NCBI GenBank assembly: GCA_036700245.1 | Contig: JAUBOM010000168.1 | Span: 1 to 12,772 of the forward strand | Reading direction: 5' to 3' | Length of the DNA stretch: 12,772 nucleotides | Source of the DNA: Microcoleus sp. herbarium2 | GTDB lineage: Bacteria; Cyanobacteriota; Cyanobacteriia; Cyanobacteriales; Microcoleaceae | Part shown: one piece after another, positions 2,688 through 11,128 of the stretch | How positions within the stretch are numbered: the stretch's first letter is position 1 | Layout of the letters: every line of letters begins with the position of its first letter | Made by a program: the position numbers and the translations under genes | The notes under the pieces: model-generated | Seen by the model: only the letters and a program-made list of their open reading frames with translations | Database searches by the model: none | What the model was told of the DNA's origin: nothing

Positions 2688-2930
2688 TTAACTTTCGATC
2701 GACAATTGCATGGGAATTGGAACGCTGTTTTCATCCAAGACAGACAGCGCATTCACAAAAACAATTGTATGCGGGACTGCGGGCATTAAGCGGCGCAGTG
2801 CTTTGAGGTAAGATTCGGCATCGGGGCGGCGGCTGAAACGGGTGACTGTTAACCGCTGACAGTTGGGGAGGTGGCGAATTATGCACCAAGGTTGAAGTCG
2901 ATCGCGATATGTCGGTTGTTTTGGTATCAT
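2688..2930 (-). CDS. Hypothetical protein (80 aa)
   Basis: The ORF has an ATG at 2930 preceded by GAAGGA 8 nt upstream. The segment PWCIIRHLPNCQRLTVTRFSRRPDAESYLKALRRL resembles small conserved cyanobacterial proteins from memory. No family name assigned. Confidence 0.5.
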   Translation of the reverse strand: MIPKQPTYRDRLQPWCIIRHLPNCQRLTVTRFSRRPDAESYLKALRRLMPAVPHTIVFVNALSVLDENSVPIPMQLSIES

Positions 2931-3054
2931 AGGAAAATCCTTCCCACTTTTGTGGGTGGTGAATGAAAGGCGATCGCTCTTGATTTCTCAGGTCGGAGGG
3001 CGATCGCTGTATTTAACTATTAAAAGCCAAAGACGTAGCTTCTGTCAAGCATAA

Positions 3055-3267
3055 ATGGGGTTAATTAGGTTGCGAGTTCGAGAACTGGCTGAGGAGAAGA
3101 GTTGGACGCTGAAAGAAGTTTCCGAGAGAACGGGTATTCCGTACAGCACGGTCAAAAATTACGCGCAAGCTCCTAAGCTGGCAACGGTGGACTACACGGC
3201 TTTGCAGAAACTTGCTGAAGTCTTCGATGTGATGGTGGAAGATTTGGTTGAGGTTTTGGAACGGTAA
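3055..3267 (+). CDS. Small XRE/Cro-C1-type HTH protein (70 aa), paralog 1 of 3
   Basis: MGLIRLRVRELAEEKSWTLKEVSERTGIPYSTVKNYAQ...VDYTALQKLAEVFDVMVEDLVEVLER fits the single-domain Cro/C1 layout: helix, turn, recognition helix, then the 'D..tL.kla.afd....DL.e' tail. I recall this as HTH_26-like. Confidence 0.85.
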   Translation: MGLIRLRVRELAEEKSWTLKEVSERTGIPYSTVKNYAQAPKLATVDYTALQKLAEVFDVMVEDLVEVLER

Positions 3268-3287
3268 ACTGATTTTTCAGCGGCAAA

Positions 3288-3500
3288 ATGGGGTTAATTC
3301 GATTGCGGGTTCGAGAACTAGCCGAAGAGAAGGGTTGGACACTAAAAGAAGTTTCTGAGCGATCGGGCATTCCTTACAGTACGGTTAGAAGCTATGCCCA
3401 TTCTCCCAAGCTGGCAACTGTAGACTATACAGCTTTGAATAAGATGGCTCGTGCTTTCGATATTGCGATCGAAGATTTAGTTGAGATTTTGGAAGAGTAG
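3288..3500 (+). CDS. Small XRE/Cro-C1-type HTH protein (70 aa), paralog 2 of 3
   Basis: Same length and architecture as 3055-3267, starting 233 bp downstream of it. Confidence 0.85.
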   Translation: MGLIRLRVRELAEEKGWTLKEVSERSGIPYSTVRSYAHSPKLATVDYTALNKMARAFDIAIEDLVEILEE

Positions 3501-3516
3501 GCTGATTTATCGGAAT

Positions 3517-3729
3517 ATGGGACGAATTAGGCTGCGAGTTCGAGAATTTGCTCAAGAGAAGGGTTGGAATATGACAGAAGTATCCAAAAGAACAGGTATT
3601 CCATATACCACGATCATTACCTATGCCAATTCTTCAGGCATGGCTACCGTTGACTACACAGCTTTGGACAAGATGGCTCGTGCGTTCGATATTGCGATCG
3701 AAGATTTAGTTGAGATTTTGGAACACTAA
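3517..3729 (+). CDS. Small XRE/Cro-C1-type HTH protein (70 aa), paralog 3 of 3
   Basis: The ATG at 3517 (MGRIRLRV...) aligns with the starts of paralogs 1 and 2. The TTG at 3481 in the ORF track would overlap paralog 2 and adds non-homologous residues. The last ~54 nt are nearly identical to paralog 2. Confidence 0.85.
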   Translation: MGRIRLRVREFAQEKGWNMTEVSKRTGIPYTTIITYANSSGMATVDYTALDKMARAFDIAIEDLVEILEH

Positions 3730-3747
3730 ACTGATTAGTTCGCGATC

Positions 3748-3842
3748 GCACGGGTGGTCAGAAACCGGGTCTTTTCGAGAATACTACGTTACAGCGGGCA
3801 GACTCGGTAAAAACCTGGTTTCTGTGGTCGTAGCAGGTAAGT
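3748..3842 (+). repeat. Hairpin repeat element, copy A (MITE/REP-like, left end degenerate)
   Basis: CAGAAACCGGGTCTTTTCGAGAATACTACGTTACAGCGGGCAGACTCGGTAAAAACCTGGTTTCTG...GGTAAGT aligns along its length with copies at 6750-6849 and 7859-7948. The internal arms CAGAAACCGGGT / ACCTGGTTTCTG are inverted. The left boundary is approximate. Confidence 0.75.
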
Positions 3843-3942
3843 CCTGACTGATTTGTCGCTCTTTGCAGTAAAAATATGGATATTGGAATTTTCCGGCTGT
3901 AGACTAGAGTCAGGAGTTGTTCAGTCTGCCGGAGTTATATTA

Positions 3943-4434
3943 ATGCCGATCAATCGCCTGTCTCAAATTGAAAAAAACTTGGAATTGCTGCAAGAGCAAT
4001 TAGGGGGCAAGGAGGAGGCTCTAATTGTAGCAGCGCAAGAAGAAAAGATCCGAATTAAACAGCAAATCCGAGAGCTACGCAAGGAGATTCGGGAGCAGGA
4101 AGAGGAGTATTGGCAGGTTCTCGCTCAGCAAACGAAAACGGTGGAAATTCCCGAACATGAGGCTGAGATTATTGTTGCCGAGATTGTCGAAGAAGTTGGG
4201 AAAATAGAAGTGCAGGGACAGTATTCAGATGAAGTGCTTCAGATTTTGCAGGAGATTCGGGACAAGCTAAACCAACCGGGAGCGACAGCGGCAGCGAAAG
4301 TTAAATGGGTGATCTCAACTAATTTCCCGTTCGTGGCAATTTCCTGCGAGGGTGAAGTGGATACACAGAAGTCATTAAAGCAGCATTTCCCAACGTTTCA
4401 TAACTGGGCTAAGGCATTAGCAAAAAAGTCCTAG
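3943..4434 (+). CDS. Coiled-coil N-terminal module (163 aa), probably the N-terminal domain of the downstream NB-ARC-TPR protein
   Basis: ATG at 3943 with GGAG 8 nt upstream; the TTG at 3853 in the ORF track runs into the repeat element. Residues 1-60 are heptad-rich and charged (LSQIEKNLELLQEQL...IRELRKEIREQEEEY). The C-terminal part contains a short hydrophobic stretch (VKWVISTNFPFVAISC). The ORF ends GCA AAA AAG TCC TAG inside the region where the NB-ARC frame is already open. Confidence 0.7.
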   Translation: MPINRLSQIEKNLELLQEQLGGKEEALIVAAQEEKIRIKQQIRELRKEIREQEEEYWQVLAQQTKTVEIPEHEAEIIVAEIVEEVGKIEVQGQYSDEVLQILQEIRDKLNQPGATAAAKVKWVISTNFPFVAISCEGEVDTQKSLKQHFPTFHNWAKALAKKS

Positions 4435-4465
4435 ACCTGGAGCGAAAAACACCTAATCCAGGTTT
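4422..4465 (+). other. Candidate -1 recoding site: in-phase A_AAA_AAG heptamer plus downstream hairpin
   Basis: The heptamer at 4422-4428 is in X_XXY_YYZ phase with ORF 3943-4434. A hairpin can form between 4433-4441 and 4457-4465 with a 15-nt loop. A -1 shift enters the NB-ARC frame. Confidence 0.45.
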
Positions 4466-4538
4466 CACAAGTTTTTACCAACTATACGATATTCCCTCCG
4501 AACTCGGTTCAAAAAACTTTGTCGGACGGGATGAGGAG

Positions 4539-6716
4539 ATGCAGCAATTGCACGGATTGTTGCAGGATGGGAGCCGCGTTGCGATCGCCGCGGCGTCGGG
4601 AATGGGCGGCATCGGCAAGACAGAATTGGCATGGCAGTATGCAAACTTTCACCGCGAACACAACACCTATCCAGCAGGGATTTGGTGGCTGTTTGTCCGG
4701 GACAACGATTTAGCGCCGCAGGTGTTGCAGAAAGCGCTGCGAATGGGAATTGAGCCGCCGGATACTCTCGACAATCTGGAGGAACGGTTGCAGTTTTGCT
4801 ACGAAGAGTGGGCAAAAAAAACCTCTGGCAATGCTCTGCTGGTATTGGATGATGTCAACGATTACCGCGCGGTGCAGCGGTTGCTGCCGAGAAATCCCCG
4901 CTTTAAGGTGTTGCTGACTGCGCGACAGCGACTGGAAGAAAAAACCTTGCAGCGATTGGATTTAAAGAAGCTCAGACCCTTGGATGCTTTCAAGTTACTG
5001 TATGAAGTTAGTCAGGCAGAGACTCGCATTGTTCAGGAACAGATTGTTGCTGAGAAATTATGTGCTTGGTTGGAGTATTTGCCCTTGGGGATTGAACTGG
5101 TGGCAACCTTTCTCAAGGTAGAGCCAGATGTGTCGGTAGCAGAGTTATTGGCACAGTTGCAGCAAAAGCTGTTGCAGGATGAGGTGCTGACTCCTGTAGC
5201 GGCGGCTTTTGAGTTAAGTTGGGTGCAGTTAAATGCTGCCGAACAGCAGTTGGCGGTATTGCTGAGTGTGTTTGCTTTGGCTCCCATGCCTTGGCAGTTG
5301 GTGGAGTCAGTGGTCGTAGTTTGTAGAGTAGAAGCCCCAAAGCAAAACTGGCTGAAGAAATTGTTGGCGGTGTGGGGAAAGGTGCAAGCACCCCAGCAGT
5401 GGTGTTTGCTACTGGACGATCGGGTTTTGAGCCAGAGTCGGCGGCGTTTAGTGGAGTTGAGTTTGCTGGGGCGGGTGGAGCAAAAGCAGTATCAACTTCA
5501 TGCTTTGATTCGAGAGTTTTTTGCAGCCAAATTGCAGGAACGCGCCGATGCTGAGATTTTGCGGAGAAGTTTTGCCGCGGCGCTGACAGCGGTGGCAAAG
5601 ACGATTCCGCAGACTGTGACGCTGGAGGTGCAGCAACGGGTGAAGGAGGCGCTGCCCCATTTGGAGGTGGTGGCGGAGCAATGGTCGCATTTGCTGGAAG
5701 ATAGTGATTCTGTGTGGTCTTTCACGGTTTTGGGGCTGATTGCTCAGGGACAGAGTTTGTCGGCAGAGGCAGAAAAGTGGTTCAAAGCTTGCCTCCAGAT
5801 GACAGAGAAACGTTGCGGAGCCGAACATTCCCTTACGGCAAAGAGTTTGAACAATCTGGCATTGCTGTACGATGCAATGGGACGCTACCCAGAGGCGGAA
5901 CCCTTGTATGTGCGATCGCTCTCTATTTACGAGCAGCAGCTCGGAGCCGACCATCCCGATACAGCTCTGAGTTTGAACAATCTGGCAGCCCTTTACTATG
6001 CAATGGGTCGCTACGCGGAAGCGGAACCTTTGTATGTGCGATCGCTCTCGATTTACGAGCAGCAGCTAGAAGCCGACCATCCCAATACGGCTACGACTTT
6101 GAGCAATCAGGCAGAGCTATACCGTGCGATGGGACGCTACCCAGAAGCGGAACCCTTGTATGTACGCTCGCTCGCCATCAGGGAGCAGCAGCTCGGAGCG
6201 GAACATCCCGATACAGCTCTGAGTTTGAACAATCAGGCATTGCTGTACCATGCAATGGGACGTTACCAGGAGGCGGAACCCTTGTATGTGCGATCGCTCG
6301 CGATCAGAGAGCAAAAGCTCGGAGCAGAAGATCGCTATACGGCAACGAGTTTGAACAATCTGGCACAACTATACAGTGCAATGGGACGTTACCAGGAGGC
6401 GGAACCCTTGTATGTGCGATCGCTCTCTATCAGGGAGCAACAGCTCGGAGCCGACCATCCCGATACGGCAACGAGTTTGAACAATCTGGCAGGGCTGTAC
6501 AAGGAAATGGGACGCTACCCGGAGGCGGAACCTTTGTTAGCGCGAGCATTAGAAATCTTTTTGAACCGATTGGGAGAAAATCATCCCAACACCCAAACCG
6601 TTAGGAGCAATTTCATTTATTTTCTCCAGCAGACCATATCAGCGGGTCAAGACTCGCAACTTTCCCAGAATCCAACAACGCAAGCAATACTGAAGCAACT
6701 TCGGGAGACGGAGTAG
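4539..6716 (+). CDS. NB-ARC (STAND) NTPase with C-terminal TPR array. The first ATG is at 4539, but homology-like coding sequence extends upstream to about 4428 with no start codon.
   Basis: Walker A GMGGIGKTELA, Walker B LLVLDDVND, LLTAR (RNBS-B-like) and YLPLGIEL (GLPL-like), followed by six 42-aa kinesin-light-chain-type TPR pairs. The same frame upstream of 4539 reads ...YDIPSELGSKNFVGRDEE, the usual pre-P-loop motif. Confidence 0.9.
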   Translation: MQQLHGLLQDGSRVAIAAASGMGGIGKTELAWQYANFHREHNTYPAGIWWLFVRDNDLAPQVLQKALRMGIEPPDTLDNLEERLQFCYEEWAKKTSGNALLVLDDVNDYRAVQRLLPRNPRFKVLLTARQRLEEKTLQRLDLKKLRPLDAFKLLYEVSQAETRIVQEQIVAEKLCAWLEYLPLGIELVATFLKVEPDVSVAELLAQLQQKLLQDEVLTPVAAAFELSWVQLNAAEQQLAVLLSVFALAPMPWQLVESVVVVCRVEAPKQNWLKKLLAVWGKVQAPQQWCLLLDDRVLSQSRRRLVELSLLGRVEQKQYQLHALIREFFAAKLQERADAEILRRSFAAALTAVAKTIPQTVTLEVQQRVKEALPHLEVVAEQWSHLLEDSDSVWSFTVLGLIAQGQSLSAEAEKWFKACLQMTEKRCGAEHSLTAKSLNNLALLYDAMGRYPEAEPLYVRSLSIYEQQLGADHPDTALSLNNLAALYYAMGRYAEAEPLYVRSLSIYEQQLEADHPNTATTLSNQAELYRAMGRYPEAEPLYVRSLAIREQQLGAEHPDTALSLNNQALLYHAMGRYQEAEPLYVRSLAIREQKLGAEDRYTATSLNNLAQLYSAMGRYQEAEPLYVRSLSIREQQLGADHPDTATSLNNLAGLYKEMGRYPEAEPLLARALEIFLNRLGENHPNTQTVRSNFIYFLQQTISAGQDSQLSQNPTTQAILKQLRETE
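5847..6602 (+). repeat. Six tandem 126-bp (42-aa) TPR units with very high nucleotide identity
   Basis: Units start at 5847, 5973, 6099, 6225, 6351 and 6477. The 27-mer GCGGAACCCTTGTATGTGCGATCGCTC is exact in units 1, 4 and 5. The protein consensus is LNNLAxLYxAMGRYxEAEPLYVRSLxIxEQQLGADHPDTAxS. Confidence 0.9.
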
Positions 6717-6878: not shown

Positions 6879-7640
6879 CTAGAAATCGCAAAAATCTTCA
6901 CTTTCTTTCTCCATCGCAAAAAGTGCGATCGGCGTTGCAAGTTTTGATGGAAAACCGCTGCTTGATGCTAAAAATTCTGCGATCGCAGCTATCAGAACAG
7001 GCAATTTTTCTTTCATATCCTCCTGACAGATAACAGTGCGACACCGAGAGCTTAACTGTTCTAACAAATCAGATTCAATGTCTGTATTTCCCGCTGCAGT
7101 CGCGATCGATCGTGCAGCTTTTTCTAAATTTCCCTCGCACTCCTGAATCGTATCAAGAGCAGCTAATGCTTCTGGATCGTGTTTTAATTGTTCGCGGAAC
7201 CGATCGATTTCTTCAGCCGTGACTGTAGCGGTAGTTGGGCGATCGAATTCTTGATTTTCCCCGGTGATTTTTGGCAGCAGCCTTGCCTCAATTTCTTTTT
7301 CTAACTTTTGCCGCAACTTCTGTTCCACTTCTAATTCAATTTGCGGTCGAAGTTTTTCCTCAATTTCTTGTTCTAATTTTTGGCGTAGTTTCTCCTCAAT
7401 TTCTTTTTCCCTTTCTTTTTGTTTTTCCCGAGCGACTTCAGCTTTTTTCTTAATTGCTTCCTCAGCGATGCGAATATTTTCTGCAATTGGCACACCATCT
7501 TCTGTCACTAAAGGAGGCATTTGTTGGTATTTCAGACTCGGATGATGAAATAATGCCCGAAGAGCTTCCATATCGTCCCGGTGTGCGAGCACATATTTCC
7601 TGAGTTCAGCAACGGTCATTTCATTAAAGTTGGGTTTCAT
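6879..7640 (-). CDS. Hypothetical protein (253 aa): small conserved N-terminal domain, repetitive charged coiled coil, and an unknown C-terminal domain
   Basis: ATG at 7640 with GGAG 9 nt upstream. The N-terminus MKPNFNEMTVAELRKYVLAHRDDMEALRALF resembles a short cyanobacterial family I recall as DUF6887; this is from memory and needs checking. The middle has EKLRQKLEQEIEEKLRPQIELEVEQKLRQKLEKEIE internal repeats. I do not recognise the C-terminal ~110 aa. Confidence 0.75.
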   Translation of the reverse strand: MKPNFNEMTVAELRKYVLAHRDDMEALRALFHHPSLKYQQMPPLVTEDGVPIAENIRIAEEAIKKKAEVAREKQKEREKEIEEKLRQKLEQEIEEKLRPQIELEVEQKLRQKLEKEIEARLLPKITGENQEFDRPTTATVTAEEIDRFREQLKHDPEALAALDTIQECEGNLEKAARSIATAAGNTDIESDLLEQLSSRCRTVICQEDMKEKLPVLIAAIAEFLASSSGFPSKLATPIALFAMEKESEDFCDF

Positions 7641-9765: not shown

Positions 9766-9940
9766 TTTTTTTAAGAATTGTTAACGTTCTTTTGTTATTA
9801 TGAGCCGATCGACTGCCACAATTTACTCTTGAACCCCTCAAAGAATATCTATTTAACGAACCGCGAAGACGCAAAGGGCGCGAAGGAAGAGGAAGAAGAA
9901 GATAGGTAATGTCTTGTTCGGTTCCGGAGTAGGCTGCATA

Positions 9941-11128
9941 ATGGGTTACATGGAATGTCCTCGATGCGAATCTGACCAAGTTCGTAAAAACGGCCGTCCC
10001 AACGGTCGCCAGCGGTATCTTTGCAAAGCTTGCCGCAAACAATTTTTTGAGCCCGCCGGTCTGCAGTCCTTAAGTCGCAAATGCACCGAAACACGGTTAA
10101 GCGAAGCTATCCCGAAGGAAATCGCCCCTGCAACCACCACAGAGTCCGGCCCGATTGCGATTTTGCTGTTGGATGCCGAAAATCTGAAACTTAAGGTTAA
10201 TACAGAACAATTTTTAGCCGGTTTGTGCGACTATCCCCTGCAAGTTAAAATTGCTTTTGCTAACTGGAAAAACCCGAGTATCGGCAAGTTGGATGCTGAA
10301 CTTTACGATCGCGGTTACGAACTGATTCACGTTCCGGGCGGTGCTAATAGTGCTGATGGTAAGATGATTGCTTTTGGCGCTGCTATTTTATATCGATATC
10401 GGGATGTGCGACAAGTTTTTGTCTGTTCTTCGGATGGTTTGTTAAATCATCTTTGCAATCAGTTACAAAATCAGGGCTTGACTGTATTTCGGGTGCGCCG
10501 GCAAAATTCGGTCTTGTCTGTTGAAAATCCTCTGACTGGTGATACTCATCACTATTCTTGTGAGAGGGAAATGGAAATCCCTAGTTTTGAAGAATTGGCT
10601 AGTCAAGTTGCAGAGTTGTTGAAGGCTGAATACAAATCTATTGAGGAGCGAATCGCTCGTTTTTCTAGTGTGGCTGAGCTTTTTCAAGAGCGCCGGACTG
10701 TTGTTTTCCCTTCTACAACTTCCCCTGCTGCACTGTCGGAGTCAGCACAAAACGAAGTTACCCCCGTGCTTGAAGCATCTTTGGCTACCCTTGCTGTCAA
10801 TCAAAATGTTGCCGAGCCAAATTTGCCCGAAACAATACCTGGTCTCAATTCTAATGCTATTGAGTCGCTGGATGTTTTTCAAACTATACTTGTAGAAATA
10901 ATAGAATCTGCAAAAATTGAGTTAAAAGAGGATGCTATTCCTGTGGCCAAAATCAAGAAAGATTTTTTGGCTAAGTATCAAACTCAGGCTGATTTAGTTG
11001 TGAAAAACTTTTTGGGTAAAAATTCCAGTTTAATCAAATATTTGCAGTCGGAATCTGGGGTTTTTGAAGTAAAATTAATCGGTCAGGAACATCAAGTGGC
11101 GATCGTCGCCCAAAAATCCTCCACTTGA
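9941..11128 (+). CDS. Zn-ribbon + NYN (LabA-like, PIN-fold) + OST-HTH/LOTUS-like domain protein, ending at an in-frame TGA
   Basis: CPRCESDQVRKNGRPNGRQRYLCKACRKQF is a CxxC...CxxC ribbon. IAILLLDAENL, NSADGKMI and VCSSDGLL fit NYN acidic motifs. The C-terminal ~75 aa (FQTILVEIIESAK...FEVKLIGQEHQVAIV) look LOTUS-like. I prefer the ATG at 9941 (GGAG 11 nt upstream) over the TTG at 9914. Confidence 0.8.
   Translation: MGYMECPRCESDQVRKNGRPNGRQRYLCKACRKQFFEPAGLQSLSRKCTETRLSEAIPKEIAPATTTESGPIAILLLDAENLKLKVNTEQFLAGLCDYPLQVKIAFANWKNPSIGKLDAELYDRGYELIHVPGGANSADGKMIAFGAAILYRYRDVRQVFVCSSDGLLNHLCNQLQNQGLTVFRVRRQNSVLSVENPLTGDTHHYSCEREMEIPSFEELASQVAELLKAEYKSIEERIARFSSVAELFQERRTVVFPSTTSPAALSESAQNEVTPVLEASLATLAVNQNVAEPNLPETIPGLNSNAIESLDVFQTILVEIIESAKIELKEDAIPVAKIKKDFLAKYQTQADLVVKNFLGKNSSLIKYLQSESGVFEVKLIGQEHQVAIVAQKSST

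Follow-up and report, generated by a model that had tools for sequence, protein, structure and literature searches.

A 12,772-nucleotide stretch of DNA from the cyanobacterium Microcoleus sp. herbarium2 (contig JAUBOM010000168.1 of assembly GCA_036700245.1; hereafter the window) carries what looks like one gene broken in two: an open reading frame (ORF) for a small helical protein of 163 amino acids (aa), which we call the module, followed in another frame by an ORF for a 725-aa NB-ARC–TPR protein of the STAND class of NTPases. A first-pass annotation made from the letters alone had located these two ORFs, out of frame with each other, and three helix-turn-helix (HTH) genes upstream of them, all of which we find in the same places (Table 2), and had read the pair as a split coiled-coil–NB-ARC–TPR gene. 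We asked whether the split marks a decayed gene, a boundary between two genes or a signal. On comparison of related loci it is most likely a conserved −1 frameshift site, neither decay nor the meeting point of two unrelated genes, and we consider it probable that the locus is one recoded gene, whose −1 slip would yield both a free module and a module–NB-ARC–TPR sensor in which the module has an adaptor role.

A slippery heptamer where the two frames meet

The module ORF ends gcA_AAA_AAG tcc TAG, and so carries, in the phase of the zero frame, a −1 heptamer of the dnaX/IS3 type that fits the X_XXY_YYZ pattern; the NB-ARC ORF lies in the −1 frame relative to it. The STAND frame is open back to position 4413, nine bases 5′ of the heptamer, and thus overlaps it. 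A slip here would join 162 residues of the module to a 37-residue linker and the 725 residues of the annotated STAND protein, giving 924 aa with the predicted join …ALAKK|VLDLERKTPNPGFTSFYQLYDIPSELGSKNFVGRDEE|MQQLH…. This 924-aa fusion, already assembled by the first-pass annotation, is very probably a real product; what that annotation missed was the A_AAA_AAG at 4422–4428. Heptamers of the form V_VV.A_AA.R are the most efficient −1 class in Escherichia coli (PMC4066793), and both A_AAA_AAG and the G_GGA_AAA found in another lineage (below) fall within it.

The junction is strikingly constant among close relatives. Across 22 distinct Microcoleus junction sequences, drawn from genomes and metagenomes (loci L001–L021), the CAAAAAAG block is unchanged in all 22, as against a DNA identity to the window of only 65–83% for the 3′ end of the module in the same set. 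This constancy bears on the simplest account of the split, a pseudogene made by a one-nucleotide homopolymer indel, or an error of sequencing or assembly. The break does fall within a run of six A, where indels and homopolymer errors typically arise, and real decay products exist in the family (L031, which has lost its STAND gene; L013, rearranged; and P0157, with an internal deletion). Yet the junction is identical in more than 20 independent assemblies, and the window module has more than 120 homologues, 71–89% identical to it, nearly all of exactly 163 aa; a stop so conserved rules out decay and sequencing error. Both halves are also under purifying selection (dN/dS 0.42 for the module ORF and 0.30 for the first 58 STAND codons, computed on gap-free segments), and the same design persists where modules are only 26–44% identical. 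The conservation data effectively refute decay or assembly error, to which we give next to no credence.

A start-less linker read in the STAND frame

From 4413 to 4539 the −1 frame contains no ATG, GTG or TTG. Within 4483–4538, 9 of the 11 sites that vary in the Microcoleus set fall at the third codon position when read in the STAND frame (binomial P=0.0014); for comparison, the undisputed STAND coding sequence has 28 of 48 variable sites at third positions (P=3e-4). The last 19 codons before the ATG have a dN of 0.003 and a dS of 0.321 (ratio 0.01, Nei–Gojobori); when they are read in either of the two other frames, all changes become non-synonymous or stops appear. A 12-nucleotide deletion in the linker region of L017 keeps the frame.

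The linker of the predicted fusion includes the peptides VLDLER, TPNPGFTSFYQLYDIPSELGSK and NFVGR, the last opening an hhGRExE-type motif, NFVGRDEE, encoded at 4515–4538. An N-terminal hhGRExE motif reportedly precedes the P-loop in STAND NTPases, as Leipe et al. are said to have described in 2004. Because the motif lies upstream of the annotated ATG at 4539, the STAND protein possesses it only if the linker is translated, and the NCBIfam matches FxSxx_TPR and AfsR likewise begin 5′ of that ATG. Ribosomes must enter so constrained a peptide from the ORF upstream, as it has no start codon of its own; comparative analysis of the sequences thus establishes, within its own terms, that the linker is translated.

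These codons are difficult to reconcile with two independent genes, one for a small helical protein and one for a 725-aa STAND protein starting at ATG 4539, perhaps coupled by termination–reinitiation, with products that touch non-covalently and a Lys-Lys kept for some protein-level reason. The ORFs are indeed annotated separately in every genome. Two genes, however, leave unexplained both the dN/dS of 0.01 across 19 start-less codons and the cutting of the hhGRExE motif by the first available start, which occurs in the window and again in the distant locus L026, whose first possible start falls inside the motif (…WFVGREG|VLQQLH).

The same design in diverged lineages

Pattern scans of genomes and metagenomes gave Microcoleus-type loci only, and a profile search with the module alignment returned mostly one Microcoleus cluster and did not widen the sample; the distant loci were reached by exact-protein look-ups of family representatives. 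Seven further lineages, with modules 26–44% identical to that of the window, combine a slippery run, a nearby stop and a downstream ORF in the −1 frame (Table 1). The heptamer is A_AAA_AAG in five of them (L023, L024, L026, L028 and L029), with a run of nine A in one and G_GGA_AAA in one. Counting the window, the zero-frame stop lies 0–1 codon past the heptamer in seven of eight lineages, and in every lineage the −1 frame is open from just 5′ of the slippery run, with stop-free −1 translations. The downstream partners belong to different STAND clades and, in L029, include a protein with a transmembrane (TM) segment and TPRs. Enrichment of the HIP1 octamer GCGATCGC supports cyanobacterial origin for the contigs of L024, L026 and L028.

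Table 1. Ends of module ORFs and their −1-frame partners in eight lineages
Locus	End of module ORF	Downstream −1 ORF
Window	gcA_AAA_AAG tcc TAG	NB-ARC + TPR
L023	gcA_AAA_AAG tca TAA, then perfect 12-bp hairpin	NACHT/nSTAND3
L024	ctA_AAA_AAG TAA	NB-ARC/AAA_16 + TPR
L026	ccA_AAA_AAG TAA	NB-ARC/AAA_16 + TPR
L028	cgA_AAA_AAG TAG	NB-ARC/NACHT-like + TPR
L029	tcA_AAA_AAG TAA	TM segment + TPR
L035	A9 run, stop three codons later	nSTAND4
L036	ccG_GGA_AAA TAA, then 8-bp hairpin	AAA_16

The codon 5′ of the Lys-Lys pair encodes five different amino acids (Ala, Leu, Pro, Arg and Ser), always with A as its third base. Because the residue varies while the wobble A stays, selection acts on the RNA and not on the protein. 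The pattern also allowed a prediction from protein tails: a member ending …PGK should carry G_GGA_AAR. In P0167 (L036), the sole member with a …GK tail whose DNA was obtained, the sequence is ccG_GGA_AAA TAA, followed by an 8-bp hairpin and an ATPase ORF in the −1 frame. More broadly, Lys-Lys plus 0–1 residue ends 53 of 97 representative clusters, and Lys-Lys stands 2–8 residues from the end in 15 more; among relatives of P0133, whose named genera are Microcystis, Pseudanabaena, Symploca, Coleofasciculus, Geitlerinema and Phormidium, 94 of 96 end in Lys-Lys plus 0–1 residue.

Set against these loci, the two-gene account has further difficulties: it leaves unexplained the wobble A in five different codons, the switch to G_GGA_AAA and the in-frame fusions with a Lys-Lys-Val junction described below, and it would have to attribute the −1 relation in all eight slippery lineages to chance, (1/3)^8. 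An arrangement of the kind it requires does exist in the family, in a module subfamily with tails …W.K.R.FF… (L032–L034) that has no slippery site and is followed by a partner gene starting at a GTG or ATG of its own; non-covalent pairing therefore also occurs, and the module need not be covalently joined in order to work. For the slippery lineages we regard two independent genes as improbable.

The fusion might instead be made by RNA polymerase slipping on the A-run, by transcriptional realignment and not ribosomal frameshifting. Transcriptional slippage on runs of 7–11 A is documented for other bacterial genes (PMC3711429), a precedent that the A9 run of L035 is long enough to follow. Most lineages, however, have six A and then G, which is short for polymerase; the G_GGA_AAA of L036 is no homopolymer and yet is a canonical ribosomal heptamer; and the in-phase X_XXY_YYZ register, which is conserved, is needed by the ribosome only. 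Polymerase slippage is accordingly a distinctly improbable source of the fusion.

A stimulatory RNA structure would be expected 4–8 nucleotides 3′ of a ribosomal frameshift site. In the window the 70 nucleotides 3′ of the heptamer fold with a minimum free energy of −12.0 kcal/mol (z=−2.35), and stronger hairpins occupy the same place in L023 (a perfect 12 bp, z=−5.2) and L036 (8 bp). No compensatory pairs were found in the hairpin among the Microcoleus variants, and we therefore keep it as a candidate stimulator only. An Rfam scan gave no match at the junction.

Several observations weigh against ribosomal recoding or its proposed purpose. The hairpin arms are mismatched, and not compensated, in 5 of 19 distinct Microcoleus junction variants; the downstream structure is weak or absent in L024, L026, L028, L029 and L035; and an upstream Shine-Dalgarno-like element is inconsistent among lineages. 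The L032–L034 subfamily does without a slippery site altogether. The lineages are homologous, and hence not fully independent samples, and for any cyanobacterium the case for frameshifting is one of sequence comparison. The module, finally, fits no known fold and no Pfam effector-associated domain (EAD) above threshold, and domain architecture is the only guide to its homotypic binding, ligand and output. With these points weighed, we judge the recoding step well supported by the comparative evidence, which establishes the recoding signal itself, and very likely correct; the conserved −1 cassette of module and slippery site, feeding STAND receptors across cyanobacteria, is on this evidence the actual finding.

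A portable module with the partners of an adaptor

An exhaustive profile-free search placed the module in a family of 216 related clusters at 50% identity, most of them stand-alone proteins of 160–175 aa. Scans of Pfam, NCBIfam and PADLOC found no family for the window protein; the same held for 65 family members, which returned noise only, apart from weak EAD9 matches in 2 of the 65 (E ~0.003). None of Pfam EAD1–11 matches the window module, nor does any of the 65 members exceed a threshold. An AlphaFold2 model built on a 65-sequence alignment is all helical and well determined (mean predicted local distance difference test score 88.8, predicted template-modelling score 0.78), with two long N-terminal helices at residues 3–29 and 32–64.

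Foldseek searches with this model found no match in the PDB at E<0.25, plant coiled-coil NLR (CC-NLR) structures included, and none among the viral structure predictions of BFVD at E<0.2. A likeness to CC-NLR or ESCRT-III proteins was rejected for want of a fold match in either database. The first-pass annotation had described an N-terminal coiled coil with a short hydrophobic segment and had suggested a coiled-coil or membrane-perturbing effector on the plant model. The helical nature of the module stands, and the hydrophobic segment is present at residues 117–135; its maximum Kyte–Doolittle hydropathy, however, is 1.0, below the level of a membrane span. The effector role finds no backing in fold or in a TM-grade segment, and the partners of the module point instead to an adaptor.

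Those partners, established by comparing sequences across the family, are of two kinds. The module occurs at the C-terminus of SEFIR/TIR, TIR, TRADD-N, STAS-LRR-Roc-COR, SNF2, NACHT and vWA proteins, and at the N-terminus of STAND proteins of the nSTAND1, AAA_16–TPR and NB-ARC–TPR types. It thus has the defining traits of the EAD class, being a small non-enzymatic domain at the terminus of a core NTPase that is also fused to effector domains, and on these partnerships it behaves like an effector-associated adaptor. Several effector-tagged versions, among them the TIR–module protein P0129 and the TRADD-N–module protein P0122, also end …AKK, which indicates that the slippery site travels with the module. 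The locus itself has no recognisable enzymatic effector domain, as first noted from the letters.

A minority of homologues are single-ORF fusions. P0192 reads …ALKKVVG…FVGREAELAELH…GIAGVGKS (the last being the P-loop), and its Lys-Lys-Val junction is what would be expected if ribosomes slipped by −1 on an A_AAA_AAG with a U after it. In others the module is joined to nSTAND1 (P0179), to AAA_16 and TPR (P0261), to a TM segment and TPR (P0177) or to a TM segment and a periplasmic binding domain (P0227). Because such in-frame fusions occur naturally, the covalent fusion is a viable functional form.

Three further family members depart from this layout. At L031 (4001–5221) a Microcoleus paralogue joins TRADD-N to the module and retains that slippery site along with the opening bases of the hairpin, the STAND gene behind having been deleted; a CyanoTRADDas_TM gene adjoins it. 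Two are rearranged: at L013 (3978–4755) the STAND sequence stops after FVGRDEEMQQL and a second, partial module copy comes next. P0157 joins module residues 1–104 straight to the last TPRs by an internal deletion.

The NB-ARC–TPR sensor

The large ORF matches Pfam NB-ARC with 49.5 bits, against a gathering cutoff of 23.5, over residues 4–212 of its 725. Walker A (GMGGIGKT, 4599–4622) and Walker B (LLVLDDV) are intact, and six or seven stretches matched by TPR_10 or TPR_12 (258 and 350 bits) make up the C-terminal sensor repeats. With the linker-encoded hhGRExE motif, the fusion would carry all four of the NB-ARC STAND hallmarks looked for, and the NLR-like order of N-terminal helical module, NB-ARC switch and TPR sensor read by the first-pass annotation is borne out by Pfam and AlphaFold2. 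The NCBIfam model FxSxx_TPR (NF040586) scores 266.2 bits, under its curated cutoff of 300, and among solved structures AfsR (8k60, 53 bits) is nearest in sequence. PADLOC, which that annotation had proposed as a check, matches the locus to no named defence system: no Avs model was hit, only a generic TPR model (E=3.6e-11). The TPR region is itself a tandem DNA repeat of 126 nucleotides (5816–6537; 5.7 copies, 82% matches), and orthologues (see L001 and L002) span 722–810 aa, so the number of sensor repeats differs among strains.

The HTH array and orf80

Upstream of the module lie three HTH genes, the products of which all score above the Pfam HTH_26 and HTH_3 gathering values; together they form a tandem repeat (3053–3736; period 233 bp, 3.0 copies, 76% matches). 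Divergent from them is orf80, which has no match in Pfam, NCBIfam or PADLOC and whose homologues, 82–99% identical to it, adjoin the HTH array in nearly every Microcoleus locus that reaches that far upstream. HTH copy number varies from 1 to 5 (1, 2, 3, 4 or 5) across the Microcoleus strains; HTH3 is the nearest of the three to the sole copy of single-copy strains (87% identical to that of L001). The last HTH gene stands roughly 0.1–0.3 kb from the module gene in most loci, as against about 1 kb in L010–L012.

The first-pass annotation had seen in the HTH trio integral regulators or sensed partners of the STAND protein, alongside the plant-like, membrane-perturbing module weighed above. Every Microcoleus locus that reaches that far has at least one HTH gene 5′ of the module on the same strand, and the paralogous TRADD-N–module locus L031 also has one upstream; no terminator-like site lies between HTH3 and the module ORF, although the promoter and terminator scan, whose counts did not exceed those of shuffled sequence, is for that reason uninformative; and small Xre-type regulators weakly match the PADLOC models capH and mad1. 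Against this, in eight non-Microcoleus lineages no HTH or orf80 homologue lies within about 4 kb, the neighbours there being HicAB, BrnT, Uma2 and similar genes instead, and the variable copy number and the 1-kb gap also sit poorly with an integral part. The orf80/HTH pair occurs away from module genes too: L031 has it twice (2862–3445 and 6130–6706, with identical orf80 copies), flanking a block of TRADD-N–module, DUF6887, DUF6888 and DUF4058 genes, so that one pair is beside the module gene and the other away from any. The annotation had itself named a lack of conserved co-occurrence between HTH and STAND genes as grounds for abandoning the partnership, and the neighbourhoods, in which the association is confined to Microcoleus, go part of the way to that end. 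With no fold match and no TM-grade segment for the module either, we hold this combined model to be unlikely. In Microcoleus the HTH proteins may act on the locus, at most as local transcription regulators, and are not a defining component; orf80 is a neighbour particular to Microcoleus and probably lies outside the core system. The divergent orf80/HTH pair behaves as a unit and may be a repeated cassette or a toxin–antitoxin-like pair.

Proposed mechanism and relation to known systems

In the recoded-gene reading, most ribosomes would pass gcA_AAA_AAG, stop at the TAG one codon on and release the free helical module. A fraction would slip one base back, by re-pairing of tRNA-Lys as in dnaX and IS3, and read the 37-codon linker into the NB-ARC–TPR frame, yielding the 924-aa protein, so that the proportion of free module to full-length sensor would be fixed by a single mRNA. 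The TPR array may then sense a ligand, the NB-ARC domain oligomerise on nucleotide exchange and the N-terminal modules cluster; clustered modules might recruit, like with like, the free module and/or module-tagged effectors encoded elsewhere, such as the TIR–module and TRADD-N–module proteins. The output would likely be cell suicide or growth arrest in conflict with phage, mobile elements or non-kin. We infer these signalling steps from architecture and by analogy with EAD and Death-fold systems, IS911 OrfA/OrfAB and phage G/GT proteins; the efficiency of the shift and the part played by the hairpin are likewise conjectural.

Alternatively, the frameshift might be part of the sensing. Slippage would depend on tRNA-Lys(UUU) and on ribosome speed, and an infection or stress that perturbs translation, for example by attacking tRNA-Lys, by depriving it of its modification or by altering the translation load, could change the ratio of free module to full-length protein and so arm or trigger the NLR-like system, the free module being a polymerising output nucleated by the oligomerised long form. 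We think this doubtful. Were it true, a whole family of cyanobacterial immune-type receptors would have recoding as a built-in dosage or trigger device.

Several known systems resemble the arrangement in part. The Escherichia coli dnaX gene (τ/γ) has the same in-phase A_AAA_AAG, a hairpin a few nucleotides 3′ and two products of one mRNA that share an N-terminus; unlike the window gene, it makes its short product by frameshifting and its long one by standard decoding, its upstream Shine-Dalgarno-like stimulator has no consistent counterpart in the module family, and the gene families are unrelated. In IS3/IS911 OrfA–OrfAB, too, a small helical or coiled-coil zero-frame protein gains a large catalytic or NTPase part by −1 shifting at an A_AAA_AAG near its stop, and the short form can bind the long one through the shared N-terminus. 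The window gene, in contrast, is a chromosomal, non-mobile STAND gene without a transposase, and the downstream partner of the module varies among STAND clades. Phage tail chaperones G/GT share a conserved −1 frameshift near the end of the small ORF and a fixed ratio of cooperating short and extended proteins, but they serve phage structure, use other heptamers and involve no NTPase.

Other parallels concern the domains. EAD1–11, known from the conflict systems of multicellular bacteria, link effector proteins with STAND, VMAP or GAP1 cores (Kaur et al. 2020, PMC7159879; 2021, PMC8195603). Like the module, EADs are small, non-enzymatic helical domains at the termini of NTPase cores, found also on TIR, TRADD-N and other effectors and enriched in cyanobacteria; unlike them, the module matches no Pfam EAD above threshold, and its free and core-fused copies come from one ORF and not from two genes. 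Frameshifting is absent from the two EAD papers (PMC7159879 and PMC8195603). STAND proteins of the AfsR/SARP and FxSxx-COOH NB-ARC–TPR types provide the best sequence matches to the NTPase and arm (8k60, 53 bits; FxSxx_TPR, 266 bits); the window protein differs in lacking the SARP DNA-binding domain, in scoring under 300 bits with FxSxx_TPR and in its new, frameshift-joined N-terminus. Avs proteins, bacterial NACHT defence proteins and plant CC-NLRs share the order of N-terminal output module, STAND switch and C-terminal repeat sensor, whereas the window protein has no PADLOC Avs match, no enzymatic effector and no coiled-coil fold match, and architecture is what speaks for a defence role. In HET-S/NWD2 and the bacterial BASS amyloid pairs an NLR N-terminal sequence is homologous to the terminus of its partner, with templated or homotypic signalling; the module differs as a 160-aa helical bundle without an amyloid motif, and here the N-termini of partner and sensor are identical, encoded by a shared ORF.

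The literature searched yielded neither a paper that connects frameshifting with STAND, NLR or EAD systems nor a published description of the module–STAND frameshift arrangement; a recoding review and the GeneTack study contain no STAND or TPR entry. To our knowledge, few bacterial chromosomal genes have conserved programmed frameshifts, the well-known ones being dnaX, prfB, copA and csoS2. If the present reading is true, it adds to recoding a whole cyanobacteria-wide gene family, in which the signal travels with a portable module joined to several STAND clades, and it suggests a new coupling of adaptor to sensor: one gene supplying the adaptor both free and attached to a receptor, with the ribosome fixing the proportion of the two. 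The annotations of hundreds of “hypothetical 163-aa proteins” and of STAND genes cut short at the N-terminus are then probably wrong, and surveys of STAND N-terminal domains based on called ORFs will miss the module.

Locus layout and neighbouring sequence

Table 2 gives the coordinates of the locus. Family scans of the window identify the flanking genes as an ECF-type ABC ATPase, DUF4058, DUF6887 and UbiD.

Table 2. Features of the module–STAND locus in the window
Feature	Position	Strand	Remarks
orf80, conserved 80-aa ORF, divergent from HTH array	2688..2930	−	Called as a gene in related loci
HTH1, 70-aa Cro/C1 (Xre-type) HTH protein	3055..3267	+	Pfam HTH_26 E=3.5e-9, HTH_3 E=1.2e-6
HTH2, 70-aa Cro/C1 HTH protein	3288..3500	+	Pfam HTH_26 E=7.4e-9
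HTH3, 70-aa Cro/C1 HTH protein	3517..3729	+	Pfam HTH_26 E=1.4e-8
163-aa all-helical module ORF; zero-frame product and N-terminal part of predicted frameshift product	3943..4434	+	
Slippery heptamer A_AAA_AAG in module-ORF phase (gcA AAA AAG), proposed −1 ribosomal frameshift site	4422..4428	+	
37-codon linker in −1 (STAND) frame, encoding VLDLERKTPNPGFTSFYQLYDIPSELGSKNFVGRDEE with the hhGRExE motif	4428..4538	+	
Zero-frame stop TAG, one codon past heptamer	4432..4434	+	
Candidate stimulatory hairpin	4433..4465	+	Arms 4433–4441 and 4457–4465, 15-nt loop, start 4 nt past heptamer
Annotated NB-ARC + TPR ORF, 725 aa, ATG at 4539	4539..6716	+	Pfam

The DUF6887 protein (6879–7640, minus strand) contains a long run of charged EKLRQKLE-type repeats, and DUF6887, DUF6888, DUF4058, Uma2, HicAB and BrnT genes recur near the module–STAND loci L024, L026, L029, L031 and L035. 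An inverted repeat (2585–2690), flanked by the DUF4058 gene and by orf80 at its 3′ end, has a perfect centre, 53-nucleotide arms that are 75% complementary and no spacer; it accounts for both of the spurious miRNA-like matches in the Rfam scan. The HIP1 octamer occurs 14 times in the whole window, against 0.15 expected from base composition. Further downstream, at 9914–11128, a 404-aa protein combines an IS1/IS1595-type zinc ribbon with a following NYN (PIN-like RNase) domain, and its position is kept in L002.

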